IMG/VR virus record: IMGVR_UViG_3300029953_000001
Source of the DNA: a virus
Length of the DNA stretch: 64,000 bases
Strand: one strand, 5' to 3'
The position numbers were made by a program, and so were the translations under genes. Below the pieces are notes generated by a model, which was given only the letters and a program-made list of their open reading frames with translations, did no database searches and had not been told where the DNA came from. Positions 1-52,302 of this stretch are shown piece by piece. Position 1 is the first letter of the stretch. Every line of letters starts with the position of its first letter.

Positions 1-1958
1 TTCTCCGACTTCTCCGTGGGCTGTTGTTTGTCCTTGTTCCGTTTAACCGTATTCTCACGGATAATGTTCTGAATGTTGTGCTGCACAGAGGGTAGGATAC
101 GTTCCAGCACAGCCTTTTCGTGCTTGCAATTGTGTACGACCACACCATTAGCTATAAATGATTCATCTTCATCCACGGTCAAATCGTGAAAATATTCCGG
201 GGCATCAACATCATTCGCTGAGTGAAGCACTCTAGTAAACCCATCTTGCCATACATCGGTTTCTTGGTTAGGAAGACCTGTATTCAACTGGTCGATAACA
301 TGAGTACGCAACCTACCCCTCATCAAATCAAGAAGCTGGGGGTACTGTTTGTAATTCCAGTAAAGGCGGAAATACCTGTTTTTCTTTCTAACCCCCTCCT
401 TTTTACCCCGCCAATCTTGGTGGAGACGCCCATGCCAAATACCCATGCTATACAGCATGGTAGATATTTGGGATACAACATGAGGAGAGATTGAATACAC
501 ATATTGTTGCCCCGAAGCATCAAAATGCCCATCCCCCAAAGCGTAAGATGACACAAGGGCTTGAATGGCCTCTGTGTTCCACTTAAACACATCAGGAGCG
601 AGGCGCTTCGTAAGGGAGCCGCACCCCGCCAATTGAATCATCTTAGCCGCAAACTTACCGTCATTGACAATGACATTGAGCCACTTTTTCCCCCCATAGT
701 TGCGAAACTTAATTTGAATATCAGCTTCAGCCCCGAGAACCCCAAACAATTTGGACTGGATATCCTGCCCAAGAGTTTCGGCCTCGTCCTGATTAATCGT
801 AAAGTTTACCCCCCATACACGAGAGGTTACCCCGTTTATATCGCATACCACTCCTTTTGTGGTGGGTCTGCCTGACTTGACCTTATTCGGGATTCCCTTT
901 CTATATATTGGGCTACCTTCTGCCAAATAATACCCCAGCAAAGAAGCAAAGTTGGAATCAACTTCAGTGCCTCCATCCCATTGTATTTTTGGGAAAAACA
1001 GGTACTCGTGAAACTCCAATTTATCCGATTCAACCCACCCCAACTTGCCTTGTGAGCAGTCTTCAATTTCAGGATCGCCCACATGGGCGACCCGGTTTTG
1101 CACTCGGGATATAGTGCCCTGACTAACCCCATACCTCTCAGCCAGAGTGTACTGATTTTCTATACTTGAATGTATCTCAGCTATTGCTTCCTCAGAGAGT
1201 TTTCGAGAAGGACGATTACGGTGGTGACCCGGCAAGAACTTACGCCCCCACTTTACCCCCCTATAACCGAGGGGCAGTGAACCTTTACAGCCACAGAAGC
1301 AGGTTTCATTTCCTCGCACAACAGCTAGTGGGTGCTCTTTAGATACAATCAGGGGTTCGGATGCCCCTTTAGCTCTAACCTCCCGAGCTATCTCTCCAAC
1401 ATGTGCAGGTCGTCCAGAAACATGAGTAACTTTACGAGCACGCCCTTTATGAGTGACAACCCAATCCCCCACCTGTACATTTTCAATCAGTTTTTCAGTA
1501 CCATCCCCCATCAGGACGCGGGTTCCGGGGGCTACGCATAAAACAAAATTCTTACGTAGGTCAAGCCGCTTCGTAGGAGCAGTAAGTTCCGGGCGTGGCT
1601 CACCCAGCAGGGCATCTCGCTGGTGAAGGTTCCACTGAGCCCCCCAGTAGAGATGGGCAGGGCAGCTACAATTAAGCTTCACATCAAGGTCGTTGGCGTT
1701 CTGAGTATCCTCCACCTTGTCCACGTCAAACTTCACCGTCACGTCGTGACCGGCAGGGTCTGAGTAGGACTCACGGCACTTAACGTTGTAGCGAAGAAAC
1801 AACTGCTTCGGGTTCGAGTCGAGCAGGGAGGGAGTACAGCCGGGACGACGCTTGATACTAAAAGAATTCGTCTGGCTCACAAGTTCGGGTACGCTAATCG
1901 CCACTTTAGTTTGCGGGTAGCTGATGTTGCCGAGTGAGATGGTGATAAAGGAAGCCAT
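1..1958 (-). CDS. Intein-containing protein, partial (C-terminus beyond window start). N-extein is about 140 aa (MASFITISLG...RKNFVL). The 470-aa intein lies at complement(129..1538). The C-extein starts at Cys codon 126..128 (CKHEKAVLERIL...).
   Basis: ATG at 1956-1958 on the minus strand; frame open to position 1, so the ORF tracker missed it (no stop in window). Intein block A CVAPGTRVLMGDG and block B VVTHKGRARKVTH. An HTH insert (LSEEAIAEIHSSIENQYTLAERYGVSQGTISRV). Two LAGLIDADG motifs (FASLLGYYLAEGS and LVSSYALGDGHF). Blocks F/G DLTVDEDESFIANGVVVHN followed by Cys+1. The host protein carries CSCPAHLY...(intein)...CKH, a SWIM-like CxC..CxH Zn motif. Confidence 0.7.
   Translation of the reverse strand, partial: MASFITISLGNISYPQTKVAISVPELVSQTNSFSIKRRPGCTPSLLDSNPKQLFLRYNVKCRESYSDPAGHDVTVKFDVDKVEDTQNANDLDVKLNCSCPAHLYWGAQWNLHQRDALLGEPRPELTAPTKRLDLRKNFVLCVAPGTRVLMGDGTEKLIENVQVGDWVVTHKGRARKVTHVSGRPAHVGEIAREVRAKGASEPLIVSKEHPLAVVRGNETCFCGCKGSLPLGYRGVKWGRKFLPGHHRNRPSRKLSEEAIAEIHSSIENQYTLAERYGVSQGTISRVQNRVAHVGDPEIEDCSQGKLGWVESDKLEFHEYLFFPKIQWDGGTEVDSNFASLLGYYLAEGSPIYRKGIPNKVKSGRPTTKGVVCDINGVTSRVWGVNFTINQDEAETLGQDIQSKLFGVLGAEADIQIKFRNYGGKKWLNVIVNDGKFAAKMIQLAGCGSLTKRLAPDVFKWNTEAIQALVSSYALGDGHFDASGQQYVYSISPHVVSQISTMLYSMGIWHGRLHQDWRGKKEGVRKKNRYFRLYWNYKQYPQLLDLMRGRLRTHVIDQLNTGLPNQETDVWQDGFTRVLHSANDVDAPEYFHDLTVDEDESFIANGVVVHNCKHEKAVLERILPSVQHNIQNIIRENTVKRNKDKQQPTEKSE
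129..1538 (-). mobile_element. Intein (Hint domain + HTH + LAGLIDADG homing endonuclease), 1410 nt / 470 aa
   Basis: Cys1 codon at 1536-1538, terminal Asn codon at 129-131, downstream Cys+1. Canonical splicing blocks and two LAGLIDADG motifs read directly from the translation. Confidence 0.65.
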
Positions 1959-1993
1959 TGACCTAGTAAGCCCTCATGATAGATTCATGTAGT

Positions 1994-2338
1994 TCAATTG
2001 TCAGAGAGACTGCGGAAGTCGAATGGGCTACTGTTGTTCTCACCGTAGAAAACAACTTGAATCCTACTGTGTAGGTTAGGTACCCCAGCGTACCCCATAG
2101 AAAGGAGGCGACGAACGACGAGGGCTCTCAGGTATTTTCGAAACCCCCTTATATTTTGGTCAGCCTTTGTGTTATTACACCACTCACAGGCGGGGAGGAG
2201 GTTGTCGATGGTGTTCTGTCCACCCATGCAGCGGGGAGTGGCATGGTCTATGGTCTTAGCTTCCCGACCACAGAACCAGCATCTCCCCTCACACTTTCTA
2301 ATAGCTTCAATCCAAAGGGTTCTAGAAATGCGGGACAA
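1994..2338 (-). CDS. HNH homing endonuclease
   Basis: CWFCG...DHATPRCMGGQNTIDNLLPACEWCNNTKAD, an HNH/Zn motif. Confidence 0.75.
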   Translation of the reverse strand: MSRISRTLWIEAIRKCEGRCWFCGREAKTIDHATPRCMGGQNTIDNLLPACEWCNNTKADQNIRGFRKYLRALVVRRLLSMGYAGVPNLHSRIQVVFYGENNSSPFDFRSLSDN

Positions 2339-2343
2339 GAAAA

Positions 2344-2781
2344 TTACTTCTCAGTTTCTACCGGCTCTTCAACCGGTTTTGGTTTGAGTTCGAGGAGGAC
2401 TTGCTTCAAGCGGTAGGGAACCTCATCAGCGGAAAGCTCGATGGGATGAGCCTTACGACGCTTCAGTTCGCGATCCTTGTCCTCTTTGCTGGGCTCAGAC
2501 GCGGCTACAGGTGTCTCTGCGACGACAGGGGTAGACTGGGGGGCTGGGGGAGGGACAAGAGCCACAGCGGGGGTATCGAGTACAGGTTCGATGAACTTGT
2601 TCTTAAGAAAGACCCCGATGCCTAGCGGCTCCTGTTTGACCACCTTCACAATCTGACCATTCCGGTATACGGTGAGTCGATTGTGATTACCCGTGTCATG
2701 CACCAGCACATCTCCCGGACGGACGTAGAAGTGGAAGTCCATGAAATCAATGGTGGTAGTTGCGACGTAACTACGCTGCAT
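2344..2781 (-). CDS. Hypothetical protein (145 aa), Pro/Glu-rich C-terminus
   Basis: Complete ORF in a tight minus-strand array. No recognisable motif. Confidence 0.45.
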   Translation of the reverse strand: MQRSYVATTTIDFMDFHFYVRPGDVLVHDTGNHNRLTVYRNGQIVKVVKQEPLGIGVFLKNKFIEPVLDTPAVALVPPPAPQSTPVVAETPVAASEPSKEDKDRELKRRKAHPIELSADEVPYRLKQVLLELKPKPVEEPVETEK

Positions 2782-2881
2782 CTTGTATCCCCTTATACCT
2801 TACTCAAGTAGGCAATTATGATTCAACACCTACAAAAGGGGGGAATATTGGTAAAAGTAGGTTATAACCCCCTACCCCCTA

Positions 2882-3541
2882 TCAGGAGGGGGTAACATCC
2901 ACGGCTCCGTTCACTATGCTTAGGACGAAGGGTGCTCCTGTTATGCTGTCTAGCACTGTAATCCCGGTTACTCCTAGTTGATAGAACCCATCTAGAGAGC
3001 ACCCCCATAGGTTATTGCCGTTTCCATTACCGTTACTTCCAGTACAGATGAGCCCCGTTTGAAATGTTGGAGCTATGTAGTAACCCACCCTGAAGTAGTT
3101 CTCCCCCGAGCCCAACGTGGTGAAGGGGGAATCTATACCAAGGTTGCCATAACCGTTGGATACCACTGCGATGCATAACTCACTGATGTAGCTGGTAGTG
3201 AGAGGAGGACTCTTCCATATGGCGTCGGGTCCGGCTCCCGATATTAGACTTCCAGTGTCGTAGGCATTGACACCGGAAAACTCCCCTACAGTCATGGCCT
3301 GTACCCCCTCCGAGCCGCTGATGGTTACAGTGGTGGGTCCGCCTACACATCTTGAGCAGTACCAGAGTCCTGTTCCGGTAGCAACCCATGTGTTACCCGC
3401 AGTGTCAGAGCAGGACGAGCCCCCTCCGCTCATCGAGGCTATTAAAAAGTTACCCAACGTGGTGTTGGTTAGATAGGTCAACGACCGAGAGCCTCTACCA
3501 GCAAACCCCACTGAATTTGATTGTACGTATGCTATGGACAT
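2882..3541 (-). CDS. Hypothetical Gly/Ser/Thr-rich protein (219 aa), possibly virion-associated
   Basis: Beta-rich composition with an SNGNGNGNN run. Sits in the structural module. Confidence 0.4.
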   Translation of the reverse strand: MSIAYVQSNSVGFAGRGSRSLTYLTNTTLGNFLIASMSGGGSSCSDTAGNTWVATGTGLWYCSRCVGGPTTVTISGSEGVQAMTVGEFSGVNAYDTGSLISGAGPDAIWKSPPLTTSYISELCIAVVSNGYGNLGIDSPFTTLGSGENYFRVGYYIAPTFQTGLICTGSNGNGNGNNLWGCSLDGFYQLGVTGITVLDSITGAPFVLSIVNGAVDVTPS

Positions 3542-4209
3542 CCGAAGCCGCCTAAACTTGAGTTCTGTATAAGACCTTGGTAGTCTATAAAAGGGACTTC
3601 ATTCCCTTTCTGCAAAATAGTTTGAAATAACTCTTGACAAGAGTGCGGGAATCCCTTAGAAACATAGAGGGGCAACAAACCTCAATCTAGAACGGCTTCG
3701 GAGGCCAGCATGAAATCCACCCCTATTAGCAGGCTTGGGCAGTCGCAAAGCTCTTGTGATTGTGACCGCAGTTGGCAAGCTCCTCATGGATGCCGGTCGA
3801 TGCGCTCCAAGAGTTAGGGTTGCGGACGATAACGCTGTAGGTATGACCGGCTTACCGCATGGCGCGACGGCGCTACTTCGGCCCGCTGGTACAACGCTCG
3901 AATCGAAGACAGCACGGGCCATGAAATCGCCCCTGATGGTTCCCAACTCCCCACCGATCAGGAATGCCGCTGAATTTGAGGGGATGTAACCCATGGGCAA
4001 ATCCACAATCAGCACCTTTCAGCTTTTCGCGATGTTCCCCCGAATACTTGTTCCAAAACACACAAGTGCCCAGTGGAGCTTAGTTTCCACTGGGCACCTA
4101 TGCAGGAGGTAACGATGATGCATAGACTAGGGGTCGTCCAAAACCACAGCCTACAGTAACATAATACTCACAAAAAATGAGTTGATGATTTGTTCTTTCG
4201 TCGTCATAC

Positions 4210-5655
4210 CTAATTAATATTCAGTGAGAAGCGTTTCTTCCCGCTATCCCAAATACGATACCATCCCTTGGCTTCCGCTTCGGATTTCTCATCCATGCCT
4301 GCCTTGACCCTTAGAGCGTACTTGCTTTTACGAACTGAACCGTTGGTGTACGAGTAATCCGGCTTTAACTCCTCTTCGAATGTGAACCCCAGCTTTCCAT
4401 AGAGCCCACCCGTGTGAAACCGATTATCACTAAAGGTGACCATTCGCTTGAATCCCATAGAGCGTAGCTCAGGAAGAGCTAGATGAAGAGCCTTTTCATG
4501 AGGATTCCATGCTTTATATTCATGATTCCAACTAGCCCGATGCCACAGGATGACACCCTCTTCACGTTTCATAAAAACCCATACACCCACAAGTTGGGTA
4601 CCATGGTGGGCAGTCACCGTCAGGCCACCGGATGCGGCTCCGAGGTAATGGTACGCATCTAGAAAGGTTCGAGCTTCAAATGGAGTTTCATGATGGATAG
4701 CAAAAACCGGCTTGATGCGCTTCCCACTCCGGGGTTGAATCATCGAACGTACGAGTGCCTTAACTACATCAGGTTTCTCATTCCACTCATCCTGATAAAT
4801 CTGGAGAAGGCGGGTTGCGCCCTGTTGTAACCACTGAAACTTATCGGCGTCTTTAGACCCTTGAAGGTATCTCTCCGAGTGCCATATCAGTCCATGGTAC
4901 TCAATAGCTAACGAGGCCGAAGGAACGTAGATATCCACTGTATGTCGTCTGGAAAACTGGGGAACCAAAGAGGACAAAGGGACTTCCATCTCTACCGGAA
5001 CGTGGTATTCGTTACGAATGAAATCGGCAATATGGGTGGCTGGAGAGTTCGCCATCATACCCATTCGGTGACATCCACAGGACTTAATCAGTCCTTGTAC
5101 GAGGGAGTCGCCGTAAACCACTGACGTGTTCCCGCAATCACAAGTCACATTCCACTGGTACTTCCCCCCCTGACCCACTCCATGTACAGTCGTTGTCGTA
5201 AGAGCGCCGAACCGCTGCCCTTCTATGTCCTTGAAGTTAGCGAGTGTGGCTTGTTCTCTCATGTAACAACCACATGAAGACGTGTGTCCACTATTCAAGT
5301 GAGCAGTGGATACCAGTGCCATGCCCCCACATTCACAAGAGCACTGCCAGAATGACTGACCGTTATACGACCCCTCGTTACGTTGGTGGTCTAATGTTAT
5401 AACTAGAAGCCGTCCGAATTTCCTGCCCACCATACTGGGGATACGATTCTGGCGACTCTCTTTTACCAGACAACCACATGACTTGGATAACCCTCGCAGC
5501 ACAGAAGCCCACGATATTTCTTTTGTTCCACCGCAGGAGCACACGAACCGATACTTCGTATGAGACACCCTAAGATTAAGAGGTAGGTTCTCCTGCTGAG
5601 GGTCAAGACGAAGTCGGTTCCACTGCATACCCAGCATATCCATACTAATACCCAA
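4210..5655 (-). CDS. Putative homing-type endonuclease: three tandem Zn-ribbon repeats, a Vsr-like PD-(D/E)XK nuclease domain and a C-terminal domain
   Basis: Repeats FVCSCGG..SKSCGC, WQCSCECGG..SSCGC and WNVTCDCGN..KSCGC. Nuclease-like TVDIYVPSASLAIEYHGLIWH...RYLQG...D. Free-standing, immediately downstream of the capsid gene terminator. Paralogous architecture at 33462..34397. Confidence 0.45.
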   Translation of the reverse strand: MGISMDMLGMQWNRLRLDPQQENLPLNLRVSHTKYRFVCSCGGTKEISWASVLRGLSKSCGCLVKESRQNRIPSMVGRKFGRLLVITLDHQRNEGSYNGQSFWQCSCECGGMALVSTAHLNSGHTSSCGCYMREQATLANFKDIEGQRFGALTTTTVHGVGQGGKYQWNVTCDCGNTSVVYGDSLVQGLIKSCGCHRMGMMANSPATHIADFIRNEYHVPVEMEVPLSSLVPQFSRRHTVDIYVPSASLAIEYHGLIWHSERYLQGSKDADKFQWLQQGATRLLQIYQDEWNEKPDVVKALVRSMIQPRSGKRIKPVFAIHHETPFEARTFLDAYHYLGAASGGLTVTAHHGTQLVGVWVFMKREEGVILWHRASWNHEYKAWNPHEKALHLALPELRSMGFKRMVTFSDNRFHTGGLYGKLGFTFEEELKPDYSYTNGSVRKSKYALRVKAGMDEKSEAEAKGWYRIWDSGKKRFSLNIN

Positions 5656-5687
5656 AAAGCGAAGGGACTGAGATTTCTCTCAGTCCC
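5652..5687 (-). terminator. Rho-independent terminator downstream of the capsid gene
   Basis: Perfect hairpin GGGACTGAGA-TTTC-TCTCAGTCCC (5664-5687). On the minus strand it is followed by UUCGCUUUUUGGG. Confidence 0.6.
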
Positions 5688-5711
5688 TTTAACCTTATCT
5701 AGTCACCTAGA

Positions 5712-6668
5712 TTAGTTCTCGCCTACGTTCGGGGAAGCGAAGCGACCACTTACAGTCAGACGCTGTACGCCGGACGGGTTGAAGACCAAGAAGCCGAGGT
5801 TCTCGAAGATGGAGAAACCAATCTGGCGGAGGTCAGGACGGTCTGCACTCATGACGGTTAGCGGGATACGCTCTGGGATGACACCGAGGAACTCAGCGTC
5901 GGCCAGAATGTACACGCAGCCATAACCAACCTTACGGGACTGGAGCAGAGTTGCGCCCCACAGGTAACCCATAACACCGGTCTTCAAGAGCTTGCGCTGT
6001 GTCTCACGGTCGATGTTCTGCTGTGTCCACTTGAGCAAGTCAGTGTAGTCGCGGGGGTTGAAGAAGCAGAAAGCCACCGAGAGGTCGTGACGCTGAACCT
6101 GACCGAAACCATCAGCCATGCTGTTGATGTCGATAGGAGCCGAAATCGCGATGTCCACGTTGTACACGGGGTCGGTCTGCGCCTTGCCTGCTGCGGCAGT
6201 TGCAACCGCGTCAAACAGGGTGAAAACGTAGCCGTCTTCTGCTGCACCGACTTCAGCCTTCGCCAAGTTAAGCGAACGGGCCACGAGGTCGAAGCGGCGT
6301 TCCTTAATCTGGGTGATAGGAATCATCGGGTTGGATACGATTTCGAACGTCGGAACCGTAACACGCTTCGGCTTTGTCACGCGAACGATGTCACCACCTT
6401 CTTCACCGACGACGAAGGCTTCCACGAAGCTACCACCGGGGGCCGAGCCCACAGTCATAGCAGCAGTGTCAAATTCCTTATCGTAGATGGGCAGAGCACC
6501 ATCGGGCAAAGTCTCAACCATCAGCGCCTTACGGGCGATGGACATATAGTCACGACGACGACGAAGTGACGGGCCAAGCGAGGCAGCAAGCTTCTGACGA
6601 CCACCGGCAGTCTTAAGCAACTGTCCGAGCATCGCGGTCTGCTGCTGTGTGCGAGAAAGATTAGCCAT
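5712..6668 (-). CDS. Putative major capsid protein (318 aa)
   Basis: Strong RBS AAGGAAAAGGAAT-ATG; a strong terminator follows. Gene order acidic scaffold-like protein, small head protein, this gene matches a head module. No diagnostic motif, so the call is positional. Confidence 0.4.
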   Translation of the reverse strand: MANLSRTQQQTAMLGQLLKTAGGRQKLAASLGPSLRRRRDYMSIARKALMVETLPDGALPIYDKEFDTAAMTVGSAPGGSFVEAFVVGEEGGDIVRVTKPKRVTVPTFEIVSNPMIPITQIKERRFDLVARSLNLAKAEVGAAEDGYVFTLFDAVATAAAGKAQTDPVYNVDIAISAPIDINSMADGFGQVQRHDLSVAFCFFNPRDYTDLLKWTQQNIDRETQRKLLKTGVMGYLWGATLLQSRKVGYGCVYILADAEFLGVIPERIPLTVMSADRPDLRQIGFSIFENLGFLVFNPSGVQRLTVSGRFASPNVGEN

Positions 6669-6692
6669 AATATTCCTTTTCCTTTTCTCTCG

Positions 6693-7154
6693 TTAGAGCA
6701 GTGAAGCTACGCCAAGCCAAGGCTCAGCAGCGGAAGGAACATGGGTGCAGATACCGACCGCAGGATTGCCAGAAAGCGTTCCCTTGTTGGTGGTGTCGGT
6801 GTACAGACCAATGTTGCTGTGAGTGGTTCCACCACAGTAGATGTACTTACCGATAACAAACGTCGGCGAGTTCACTGTGTCGTAAGACTCAGAGTTGACG
6901 TTGCCCTGAAACAGGGCGCGGACAATAGGAGCCTTCTTGGAACCGGAGGGACCAATCGCACCAGCGAATTCGCCGGGACCATTGAGCAGGACGCCAAAGG
7001 GCACAAGTGCCGCAGCGGTGTCAGTGTCGGCGGGAACGATGACAGCTTCCAGCGAGGTGTTGACAGCAGGAACCTTGAGGGCAACAATCTTGCCACCGAG
7101 GTACCCAGCCGCAGTCAACGTCTGCTGGTCAGTGCCGGGGTCACCCGTGAGCAC
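6693..7154 (-). CDS. Hypothetical head-module protein (153 aa; decoration- or scaffold-like by position)
   Basis: Immediately upstream of the capsid candidate on the same strand and frame, separated by TAA and an RBS. Confidence 0.35.
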   Translation of the reverse strand: MLTGDPGTDQQTLTAAGYLGGKIVALKVPAVNTSLEAVIVPADTDTAAALVPFGVLLNGPGEFAGAIGPSGSKKAPIVRALFQGNVNSESYDTVNSPTFVIGKYIYCGGTTHSNIGLYTDTTNKGTLSGNPAVGICTHVPSAAEPWLGVASLL

Positions 7155-7607
7155 AACGTCAGGCGACCACTGAGAGTCGTTCTGTCCGTAATACCTATGT
7201 GTTATCCACTTTCGTGGAGGTAGGGCATTTCTGCCTACCTCTTATAGTTCACTATTTCCTATAAGAGCGGACTATCGCATCACCGTTTAGGTGCCCTCTC
7301 GCTTAGTCTCTCAGGCTGCACAGTAACTGTTTGTTACTTGCTTGCCCCCTGTTGGCATCTCAGCTTCCAAGTCGATCAGAGTGGGTTTATACTGGCCTAG
7401 CTATTAAGTCAGTTTAAGAGCCATTTTGACTTTTTCTCCATGTAGAAGTTTTGAATTAGCCCTCACTCCAATTCTTAGTCGAGGAGACCGACCGTTGAAC
7501 TATAGAGCAGTGACTTACTTCACATACCTATGGGGTGGGTATTGGGAGAAAGCTAGACTTACATTAAATTTTAATTTTATGCCCGTTTTTCTGTCCATAA
7601 TAAATAA

Positions 7608-8306
7608 GTGAACTACCTATACCTTAGTATGTTCATATACCTAGTTACCAACACGATAAACGGCAAAGCCTACATTGGAAAAACCTCGAAAACCGTCAAG
7701 GGACGGTGGGAAACCCACCTTCAGAACGCAAAGATGGGGTTGCCCTACCATCTATACCGAGCTATTCGAAAGTATGGGGTTGACGCTTTTCATGTACAGA
7801 CTATCGCAGAATGTAATAACTCAGAACAGTTGAGCGAGTTGGAGAAGATGTGGATTTTGTTACTAGGTACTCACAGCACCAAATATGGGTACAATATGAC
7901 CTATGGAGGTGAGGGGGTTACCGGAACTGAGGAGGTGCGTGAAAAAATTAGACAAAAGGCCATGGGTCGGATTCCGTCTAAAAAACAGAGAGCAGTTGCG
8001 TCAGCCCTCTTCAAGGGTAAGCCAAAGCCTATAATTCAGCGGAAGAAAATGGCTGCTTGGTGGGATGAGACCACACCTATAGGCCAAGCTAGACGTAGTA
8101 AACAGGCGTTGGTAGCCCGTCGCGTCAATGACATTGAAAACAAGAAACTGAAGGACTACCTATGCCCTGACTGCGGGAATGAGTTTGAGCAAGTTACCAA
8201 AGGCGTATACGGTGGGCACCGTAAGGCGTGCCTACACTGGAAGAGAATGTCTGAGATTGTCGAAGAAGAAATTGGGCTGACCCTAGACGAGGTACTAGAC
8301 TCCTAG
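7608..8306 (+). CDS. GIY-YIG homing endonuclease (I-TevI/Seg-like)
   Basis: YIYLVTNTINGKAYIGKTS...R..H..YGYNMTYGGEG, then a basic C-terminal DNA-binding region ending in a CPDCG Zn finger. Plus-strand island in a minus-strand module. Confidence 0.8.
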   Translation: MNYLYLSMFIYLVTNTINGKAYIGKTSKTVKGRWETHLQNAKMGLPYHLYRAIRKYGVDAFHVQTIAECNNSEQLSELEKMWILLLGTHSTKYGYNMTYGGEGVTGTEEVREKIRQKAMGRIPSKKQRAVASALFKGKPKPIIQRKKMAAWWDETTPIGQARRSKQALVARRVNDIENKKLKDYLCPDCGNEFEQVTKGVYGGHRKACLHWKRMSEIVEEEIGLTLDEVLDS

Positions 8307-52228: not shown

Positions 52229-52302
52229 TGGTGCTCCCGGCAGGGTTCGAACCCGCGTCTCTTAGGTTAGAGCTAAGGGCACAGCCGCTATACCACGGGA
52301 GC
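52229..52302 (-). tRNA. tRNA with anticodon CUA (reads UAG amber), compact 74 nt with encoded CCA
   Basis: GCTCCCG-TG-GTAT-AGCGGCT-GTGC-C-CTTAG-CUCUAAC-CTAAG-AGAC-GCGGG-TTCGAAC-CCTGC-CGGGAGC-A-CCA. Perfect 7-bp acceptor, perfect 5-bp anticodon stem, U33 and A37 in place. Confidence 0.5.

Follow-up and report, generated by a model that had tools for sequence, protein, structure and literature searches.

A probable mobile LAGLIDADG intein interrupting a conserved cysteine motif of a capsid-module protein in jumbo phage DNA

Introduction

Phage inteins have usually been reported in replication, repair or packaging enzymes. The intein studied here lies in a capsid-module gene at the beginning of a 64,000-nucleotide stretch of viral DNA (IMG/VR record IMGVR_UViG_3300029953_000001, one strand; this whole stretch is called the window in the following). 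Among inteins of solved structure its best match is PI-SceI, the Saccharomyces VMA1 intein (PDB 1vde, 1ef0, 1lws), around which the Pfam family Hom_end_hint was built. The DNA recognition region (DRR) of PI-SceI is inserted into the HINT domain (PMC8966425). In TliVMA and PI-TkoII the accessory domains resemble helix-turn-helix (HTH) DNA-binding proteins and vary among closely related inteins (PMC8966425). Another group of inteins is inserted at or beside ligand cysteines of metal sites in the host, where zinc or disulfides can sequester the nucleophilic Cys. For example, the intein of Pyrococcus MoaA works as a redox trap. Splicing of the Mycobacterium DnaB intein is inhibited by zinc (PMC7360933).

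Compared with these systems, the present intein shares with PI-SceI a Hint domain in which a two-motif LAGLIDADG endonuclease is nested, the nucleophiles Cys1 and Cys+1, a match to Hom_end_hint, and an extra predicted DNA-binding region that follows block B in the N-terminal Hint lobe. However, sequence identity between the two is only about 14-15%, the extra region has the DRR fold in PI-SceI and consists of a Cys-rich segment plus a three-helix HTH here, and the host protein, the insertion site and the setting, a jumbo phage, are different. TliVMA and PI-TkoII (PDB 7qss, 2cw7; E 1e-13 to 1e-15) are likewise endonuclease-bearing inteins with an HTH-like accessory domain, but in them this domain follows the endonuclease and precedes the C-terminal Hint part, whereas here it follows the N-terminal Hint lobe and precedes the endonuclease, and the present lineage shows three module states (none, Cys-rich only, Cys-rich plus HTH). 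The HTH insert is thus a variation on an already described theme, represented by the position of the extra region in PI-SceI and by the accessory domains of TliVMA and PI-TkoII. The metal-site inteins share the insertion at or beside host ligand cysteines; their hosts carry an Fe-S CxxxCxxC motif or are helicases, in contrast to the SWIM-like CxC...CxH motif interrupted here. The N-terminal junction of the precursor also gives a local match to the model of the radical-SAM inteins (NF038136, E 8e-7).

In our estimate there is a probability of about 90% that the locus holds a complete, functional and mobile class-1 LAGLIDADG intein, which interrupts a conserved capsid-module protein of a jumbo phage related to Tunturiibacter phage Tunturi_5. 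The evidence consists of sequence comparisons and structural models.

Results

The interrupted open reading frame (ORF) is carried by the minus strand. It starts with ATG at 1958, preceded by GAGGG, and its translation is free of stops to window base 3; none of the three plus-strand frames of positions 1-2100 has a long ORF. The N-terminus, MASFITISLG, resembles the starts of homologues, e.g., MAEFITIPLS. The sizes given in a first-pass annotation of this DNA, 470 amino acids (aa) for the intein (CVAPGT...GVVVHN), 140 aa for the N-extein and 42 aa for the part of the C-extein within the window, proved to be exact (Table 1). A full-length identical protein of 823 aa from public metagenomes (P0067) extends the host gene 171 aa past the window start, so that the full C-extein has 213 aa. 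This protein is present on 12 contigs, the longest of 431,749 bp, and the gene is therefore intact; since its contigs reach this length, the window can be regarded as jumbo phage DNA. A megablast of window positions 1-8000 against GenBank phages returned zero matches. A pseudogene is ruled out by the canonical residues, the precisely empty sites and the occurrence of the same intact ORF on 12 contigs.

The completeness of the intein, also claimed in the first-pass annotation, was borne out by family matches, by the predicted fold and by aligned blocks. The N-terminal splicing region matched Pfam Hom_end_hint (PF05203) with 38.3 bits (cut-off 32.1) and the C-terminal region matched NCBIfam TIGR01443 with 29.4 bits (cut-off 15.6). 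In an alignment of 15 related inteins, Cys1, the block-B His, the block-F Asp, the terminal His-Asn and Cys+1 are all canonical, and the C-terminus reads ...SFIANGVVVHN followed by C, as had been proposed. For block B the earlier reading held for the His only; the sequence is S-K-E-H, with Ser for Thr, and not TxxH. Both LAGLIDADG motifs that had been noticed, LLGYYLAEGS and YALGDGH, were recovered in the same alignment, with G202, Y204, A206, E207 and G208 of the first invariant and G335 and D336 of the second nearly invariant. The AlphaFold model of the intein, built on the 15 related sequences, has a mean predicted local distance difference test score (pLDDT) of 82.4, and the endonuclease core is modelled at pLDDT >90. 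Searched with Foldseek against the PDB, the model matched PI-SceI best (E 1.6e-15) and also TliVMA, PI-PfuI and PI-TkoII, all four inteins at E 1e-15 to 1e-12, followed by the free-standing LAGLIDADG enzymes I-DmoI, I-OnuI and I-SceI (E 1e-6 to 1e-4). Judged by its predicted helices, acidic residues and modelled fold, the endonuclease is of the two-motif, monomeric LAGLIDADG type, which has an alpha-beta-beta-alpha-beta-beta-alpha core and a catalytic acidic residue at the end of each LAGLIDADG helix. Bacterial intein-like (BIL) domains are Hint domains without a nested endonuclease; they occupy the variable parts of proteins that are not conserved, and standard splicing is usually lacking. 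A BIL-type or non-splicing Hint domain is rejected here on account of the nested LAGLIDADG endonuclease, the canonical His-Asn and Cys+1, the exact empty sites, and an insertion point that coincides with a residue invariant in a conserved protein.

The precision of the insertion was evident from empty sites. When the intein is removed, a conserved protein is reconstituted across the junction, which was the comparison suggested in the first-pass annotation. The spliced extein aligned with gp336 of Tunturi_5 (XOB77779.1), a 309-kb myovirus, at 65.8% identity in a single ungapped piece covering 88% of the query; gp336 is orthologous to the host protein, but has no intein. Sixty-six intein-free metagenomic homologues of about 230-320 aa were colinear over the junction, reading NFV[IL]CKHxKAVxERILPSVQHNI, versus zero intein-bearing matches in the same search. 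On the DNA level, the intein-free allele L005 (VFSW01381276.1) aligned without gaps with the spliced window sequence at the junction of TTTGTTTTA and TGCAAGCAC, the empty allele reading TTTGTTTTATGCAAGCAC around the insertion site. The GC content of the intein is 0.474, that of the N-extein 0.531 and that of the whole window 0.523. The intein is carried by about 9 of about 60 close clusters of the host family.

A search based on the intein itself revealed a family of related inteins, nearly all in the same host family and distributed over three insertion sites. Site a, before C141 in the numbering of the spliced protein, is occupied in the window protein, P0071 and P0117. Site b, three residues further on and directly after H143, is occupied in P0068, P0069, P0070, P0072, P0075 and P0078 and has the form ICKH/C...HN/C[HK]AV (slashes mark intein boundaries). 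Site c, before C99, the second Cys of the CxC, is occupied in P0073, P0074, P0076, P0077, P0079, P0109 and P0131. The three sites fall within 46 residues, 3 to 45 residues apart; all have Cys at the +1 position, which at sites a and c is an invariant residue of the motif. Identities computed over 355 core columns grouped the inteins by site, being 63% within site a, 58-72% within site b, 39-81% within site c and 38-59% between sites, which suggests three lineages derived from one ancestral intein. The N-exteins of P0071 (site a) and P0077 (site c) are identical at 108 of 109 residues. Mobility seems to be recent, given that hosts so nearly identical differ in the site at which the intein is inserted. 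In GenBank phage genomes the sole match to the intein, in Eggerthella phage LE2-3, was 25% identical, and a hidden Markov model of the intein family run over the six frames of the window did not find a second intein.

A more distant related intein (23% identity, E 1.9e-12) is present in a different host protein, the metagenomic P0080 of 779 aa. Its junction, ...CECKWDQFAWQR...EGRV/C...VVVHN/CSHVLATYW, precedes the CxH cysteine in a further CxC...CxH motif. Spliced P0080 matched both halves of Pfam SWIM at 15.4 bits. When the profile of the window host family was compared with the spliced P0080 host by hhalign, the result fell short of significance (probability 0.1). The P0080 host is best treated as a separate SWIM-like protein, and the equivalence of the insertion sites is tentative.

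Two accessory modules are placed between block B and the strands leading into the first LAGLIDADG helix. The extra HTH of the first-pass annotation is a genuine optional insert, with helices predicted at intein aa 116-124, 129-136 and 140-147 (pLDDT 72-87 as means of 10-residue blocks), although its matches to HTH families all stayed below threshold. It is preceded by a Cys-rich segment, NETCFCGCKG...KFLPGHH, which had gone unnoticed. This segment is possibly a small metal-binding element; it was modelled with low confidence (pLDDT about 50), and three variants of it, searched alone against Pfam, matched no family. Most relatives, whether at site a, b or c, have the Cys-rich module, which is lacking in P0071 and P0079; the HTH is lacking in these two and in P0072, P0073, P0074, P0076 and P0077. 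Accordingly, both modules occur in the window protein, P0068-70, P0078 and P0117, the Cys-rich module only in P0072, P0073, P0074, P0076 and P0077, and neither module in P0071 and P0079.

The host protein is characterized by the motif CSC...CKH. In the spliced numbering, C97, C99, C141, K142 and H143 show no variation among 40 close homologues. When 1.84 billion representative proteins were searched with a profile made from the N-terminal domain, 419 clusters (50% identity) were obtained at E <= 0.001; in an alignment of 79 distant homologues, a subset of the more distant members from this search, the CxC and CKH are the only invariant columns. The spacer within the motif has 41 residues in the window protein and 37-50 residues throughout the family. 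The C-terminal half of the protein is a low-complexity tail rich in lysine and glutamate. In one distant member of the family, the metagenomic P0144 (696 aa), the whole CxC-x40-CKH domain is present in two tandem copies.

The sole specific family recurring in the host family is Pfam SWIM (PF04434), the zinc finger found, e.g., in ZSWIM8 (PDB 9rwz), whose strand-strand-helix fold binds one zinc ion. It was matched by 35 of 39 close members and by 27 of the 79 distant ones (best E 2.5e-6). Three close members scanned singly scored 13.3-17.2 bits, below the cut-off of 19.6, and aligned to SWIM profile positions 9-22 only, i.e., the first half. The canonical SWIM spacer is 6-25 residues, and that of the host family is longer. 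Thus, the statement that the intein splits a SWIM-like motif stands as far as the CSC...CKH is concerned, which is real and invariant, while membership in SWIM is weaker and below the Pfam cut-off. The sequences support it only in a weaker form: the motif appears SWIM-like with a long spacer, the host protein itself is without Pfam SWIM membership, and the link is transitive. Other recognizable domains are absent from the host. Pfam, PHROGs and NCBIfam gave no usable match to the spliced extein, PHROGs gave scattered weak matches only to 39 homologues, and the match of the host-family profile to PDB sequences was confined to the low-complexity tail. Literature searches on intein plus SWIM, and on SWIM zinc finger plus phage plus virion, found nothing relevant.

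Two further features of the N-extein were observed. At codon 102, Phe is the residue in at least 90% of the 40 close homologues (CPAFLYWG), but the window protein has His (CPAHLYWG); this substitution may be the reason why the window extein, unlike its relatives, lacks a SWIM match. Moreover, C41, C61 and H71 are invariant in the 40 close homologues and not in the distant ones, and could form a second, subfamily-specific metal or disulfide site.

The gene order of major head protein gene, a gene of about 220-260 aa and the host gene is the same in the window, in Tunturi_5 and in a relative with 44% identity (L006). The surroundings of the major head protein gene contain three free-standing homing-endonuclease genes, all no more than 8 kb away from the intein (Table 1): an HNH gene directly upstream of the host gene, a gene for a 481-aa protein with repeated CxCGG...SCGC fingers, and a GIY-YIG gene in a low-GC patch. 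The capsid module is unusually crowded with selfish elements. At a distance from this module, a cluster of phage transfer RNA (tRNA) genes at 46.4-52.3 kb (Thr x3, Gln, Ile x2) includes a tRNA with the anticodon CUA, labelled 'Pyl' by ARAGORN, which is a candidate amber suppressor and could indicate stop-codon reassignment or suppression in part of the phage life cycle. A phage transfer-messenger RNA (tmRNA) is also predicted, with the tag peptide ANSNVALPIAA, and marked by ARAGORN with an asterisk.

Table 1. Positions in the window of the host gene, the intein with its predicted functional elements, and neighbouring features
Feature	Position	Strand	Basis
N-extein, 140 aa; homologue of Tunturi_5 gp336; has C41, C61, H71	1539..1958	-	translation and alignments
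C41, C61 and H71 of the N-extein	1746..1838	-	invariant in 40 close homologues
First motif half, CSC (C97, C99)	1662..1670	-	invariant in 40 close and 79 distant homologues; SWIM positions 9-22 match homologues here
Codon 102 (His for Phe)	1653..1655	-	comparison with 40 close homologues
Complete 470-aa class-1 intein with nested LAGLIDADG homing endonuclease (predicted)	129..1538	-	Pfam/NCBIfam, AlphaFold/Foldseek, exact empty sites
Block A, CVAPGTRVLMGDG; Cys1 nucleophile at 1536..1538	1500..1538	-	Hom_end_hint profile positions 1-77 align
Block B, EPLIVSKEHPLAVV; SxxH, His69 nearly invariant	1317..1358	-	alignment of 15 related inteins
Cys-rich module, NETCFCGCKGSLPLGYRGVKWGRKFLPGHH, CxCGC...GH, intein aa 77-106	1221..1310	-	alignment of relatives
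HTH module, intein aa 114-150	1089..1199	-	predicted helices and sub-threshold HTH matches
LAGLIDADG motif 1, FASLLGYYLAEGS; predicted catalytic Glu207	912..950	-	alignment and predicted helix 195-207
LAGLIDADG motif 2, IQALVSSYALGDGH; predicted catalytic Asp336	525..566	-	alignment and predicted helix 322-336
Blocks F and G, EYFHDLTVDEDESFIANGVVVHN; penultimate His469, terminal Asn470	129..197	-	TIGR01443 and alignment
C-extein start, CKHEKAVLERILPSVQHNI..., 42 aa in the window (128..3, begins CKHEKAV)	1..128	-	translation
Second motif half: Cys+1 (C141); His (H143)	126..128; 120..122	-	invariant C141, K142, H143
HNH gene	1994..2338	-	Pfam HNH, 33 bits
481-aa protein with repeated CxCGG...SCGC fingers	4210..5655	-	phrog_374, 559 and 3339, E about 1e-31
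Major head protein gene	5712..6668		phrog_2522, E 4.6e-42
GIY-YIG gene	7608..8306	+	phrog_314, E 3e-33
tRNA, anticodon CUA	52229..52302	-	ARAGORN
Predicted phage tmRNA	56280..56680	-	ARAGORN

Discussion

Based on these results, a complete and mobile intein in a capsid-module protein is the reading we prefer. Several observations weigh against it. Pfam Intein_splicing scored 34.3 bits, just under its cut-off of 35.8, and LAGLIDADG_3 scored 15.3 bits at precursor aa 466-515, where 22.5 are needed. The six Pfam matches of the HTH segment are all to HTH families (including HTH_29, Sigma70_r4, Trp_repressor, HTH_Tnp_4 and HTH_3) and all sub-threshold, the best at E 0.0096; the LacI headpiece resembles the segment at E 0.18. 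The window's own spliced extein had zero matches to Pfam SWIM at E up to 10. In addition, the label 'tail protein' of gp336 comes from automated prediction and is not based on proteomics.

The insertion, as judged from the alignments, is directly before the third ligand Cys of the CxC-x41-CKH motif. Because it directly precedes this presumed ligand, Cys141 would double as the +1 splicing nucleophile. According to the scheme that we propose, the 823-aa precursor would be translated and would undergo an N-S acyl shift at Cys1; Cys+1 would attack the thioester formed there; Asn470 would cyclize, aided by His469; and an S-N shift would link Leu140 to Cys141, giving NFVLCKH and a contiguous metal site. 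The freed intein would then act as a site-specific endonuclease with Glu207 and Asp336 as catalytic residues, cutting intein-free alleles of co-infecting related phages near the TTTGTTTTA/TGCAAGCAC junction, and the intein would be copied into the cut allele during its repair (homing). Additional DNA contacts may come from the Cys-rich and HTH modules, as they do from the accessory domains of other endonuclease-bearing inteins. We infer splicing, cleavage, homing and zinc binding from conserved residues and population patterns. That metal binding would be restored only after splicing is a reasonable expectation from the position of the insertion; a partial metal site in the precursor is also conceivable, because the termini of an intein adjoin in the Hint fold.

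One alternative is that the intein splices with a dead or dying endonuclease, is inherited vertically at a late stage of the homing cycle, and keeps the accessory modules as decaying remnants. The sub-threshold LAGLIDADG_3 score, the loss of both modules in P0071 and P0079 and the low confidence of the modelled Cys-rich module would agree with such decay. However, both acidic residues and both LAGLIDADG helices have been kept across inteins that are 40-60% identical, the endonuclease core is modelled with high confidence, and the occupation of near-identical hosts at different sites, together with close relatives that have empty sites, points to recent movement. We consider a dead endonuclease unlikely.

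It is about as improbable, in our opinion, that the CxC...CKH does not form a SWIM-type zinc finger at all, and that a family-specific Cys cluster (disulfide, other metal or catalytic) has only a superficial SWIM resemblance. The spacer, long compared with the short canonical one, would fit such a cluster, as would the scores of close members below the Pfam cut-off at profile positions 9-22 only and the absence of solved structures with a sequence match to the host family. The invariant C41, C61 and H71 might also make up an alternative site or an additional one. The recurrence of Pfam SWIM across the host family remains the basis for calling the motif SWIM-like.

Less probable again, and in our judgement quite unlikely, is that the insertion is regulatory and not merely selfish, with zinc or redox state gating splicing and hence a conditional maturation of the capsid-module protein. 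The insertion is exactly at the ligand Cys141, and in the precursor sequence Cys1 stands in the place of Cys141; related inteins use the ligand Cys99 or the spot directly after His143, which gives C-K-H-C1 in the precursor. Zinc-inhibited and redox-controlled splicing have been documented in other inteins (PMC7360933). However, most family members are intein-free, both in the homologue search and among the close clusters. The host can do without the intein, and when inteins home to conserved functional sites, they generally do so for selfish reasons. Even more doubtful is a broader version, that one intein lineage has repeatedly colonized ligand cysteines of one motif and thereby coupled splicing to the assembly of the zinc site as a metal- or redox-gated maturation switch; it would extend, possibly, to the equivalent CxH cysteine of P0080, an unrelated SWIM-like protein.

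Taken as a probable mobile intein, the element itself is of a well-known kind and adds no new principle. What it does add, in a capsid-module gene of jumbo phages of the soil type, is a new intein host protein together with three insertion sites that are likewise new. The inteins at three sites and in three module states form a natural series for the study of target-site change and of the gain and loss of accessory modules. With a presumed zinc ligand as the +1 nucleophile, the intein is a convenient candidate for metal-dependent conditional splicing. Moreover, its position flags the CxC...CKH as the functional core of a widespread phage protein family.

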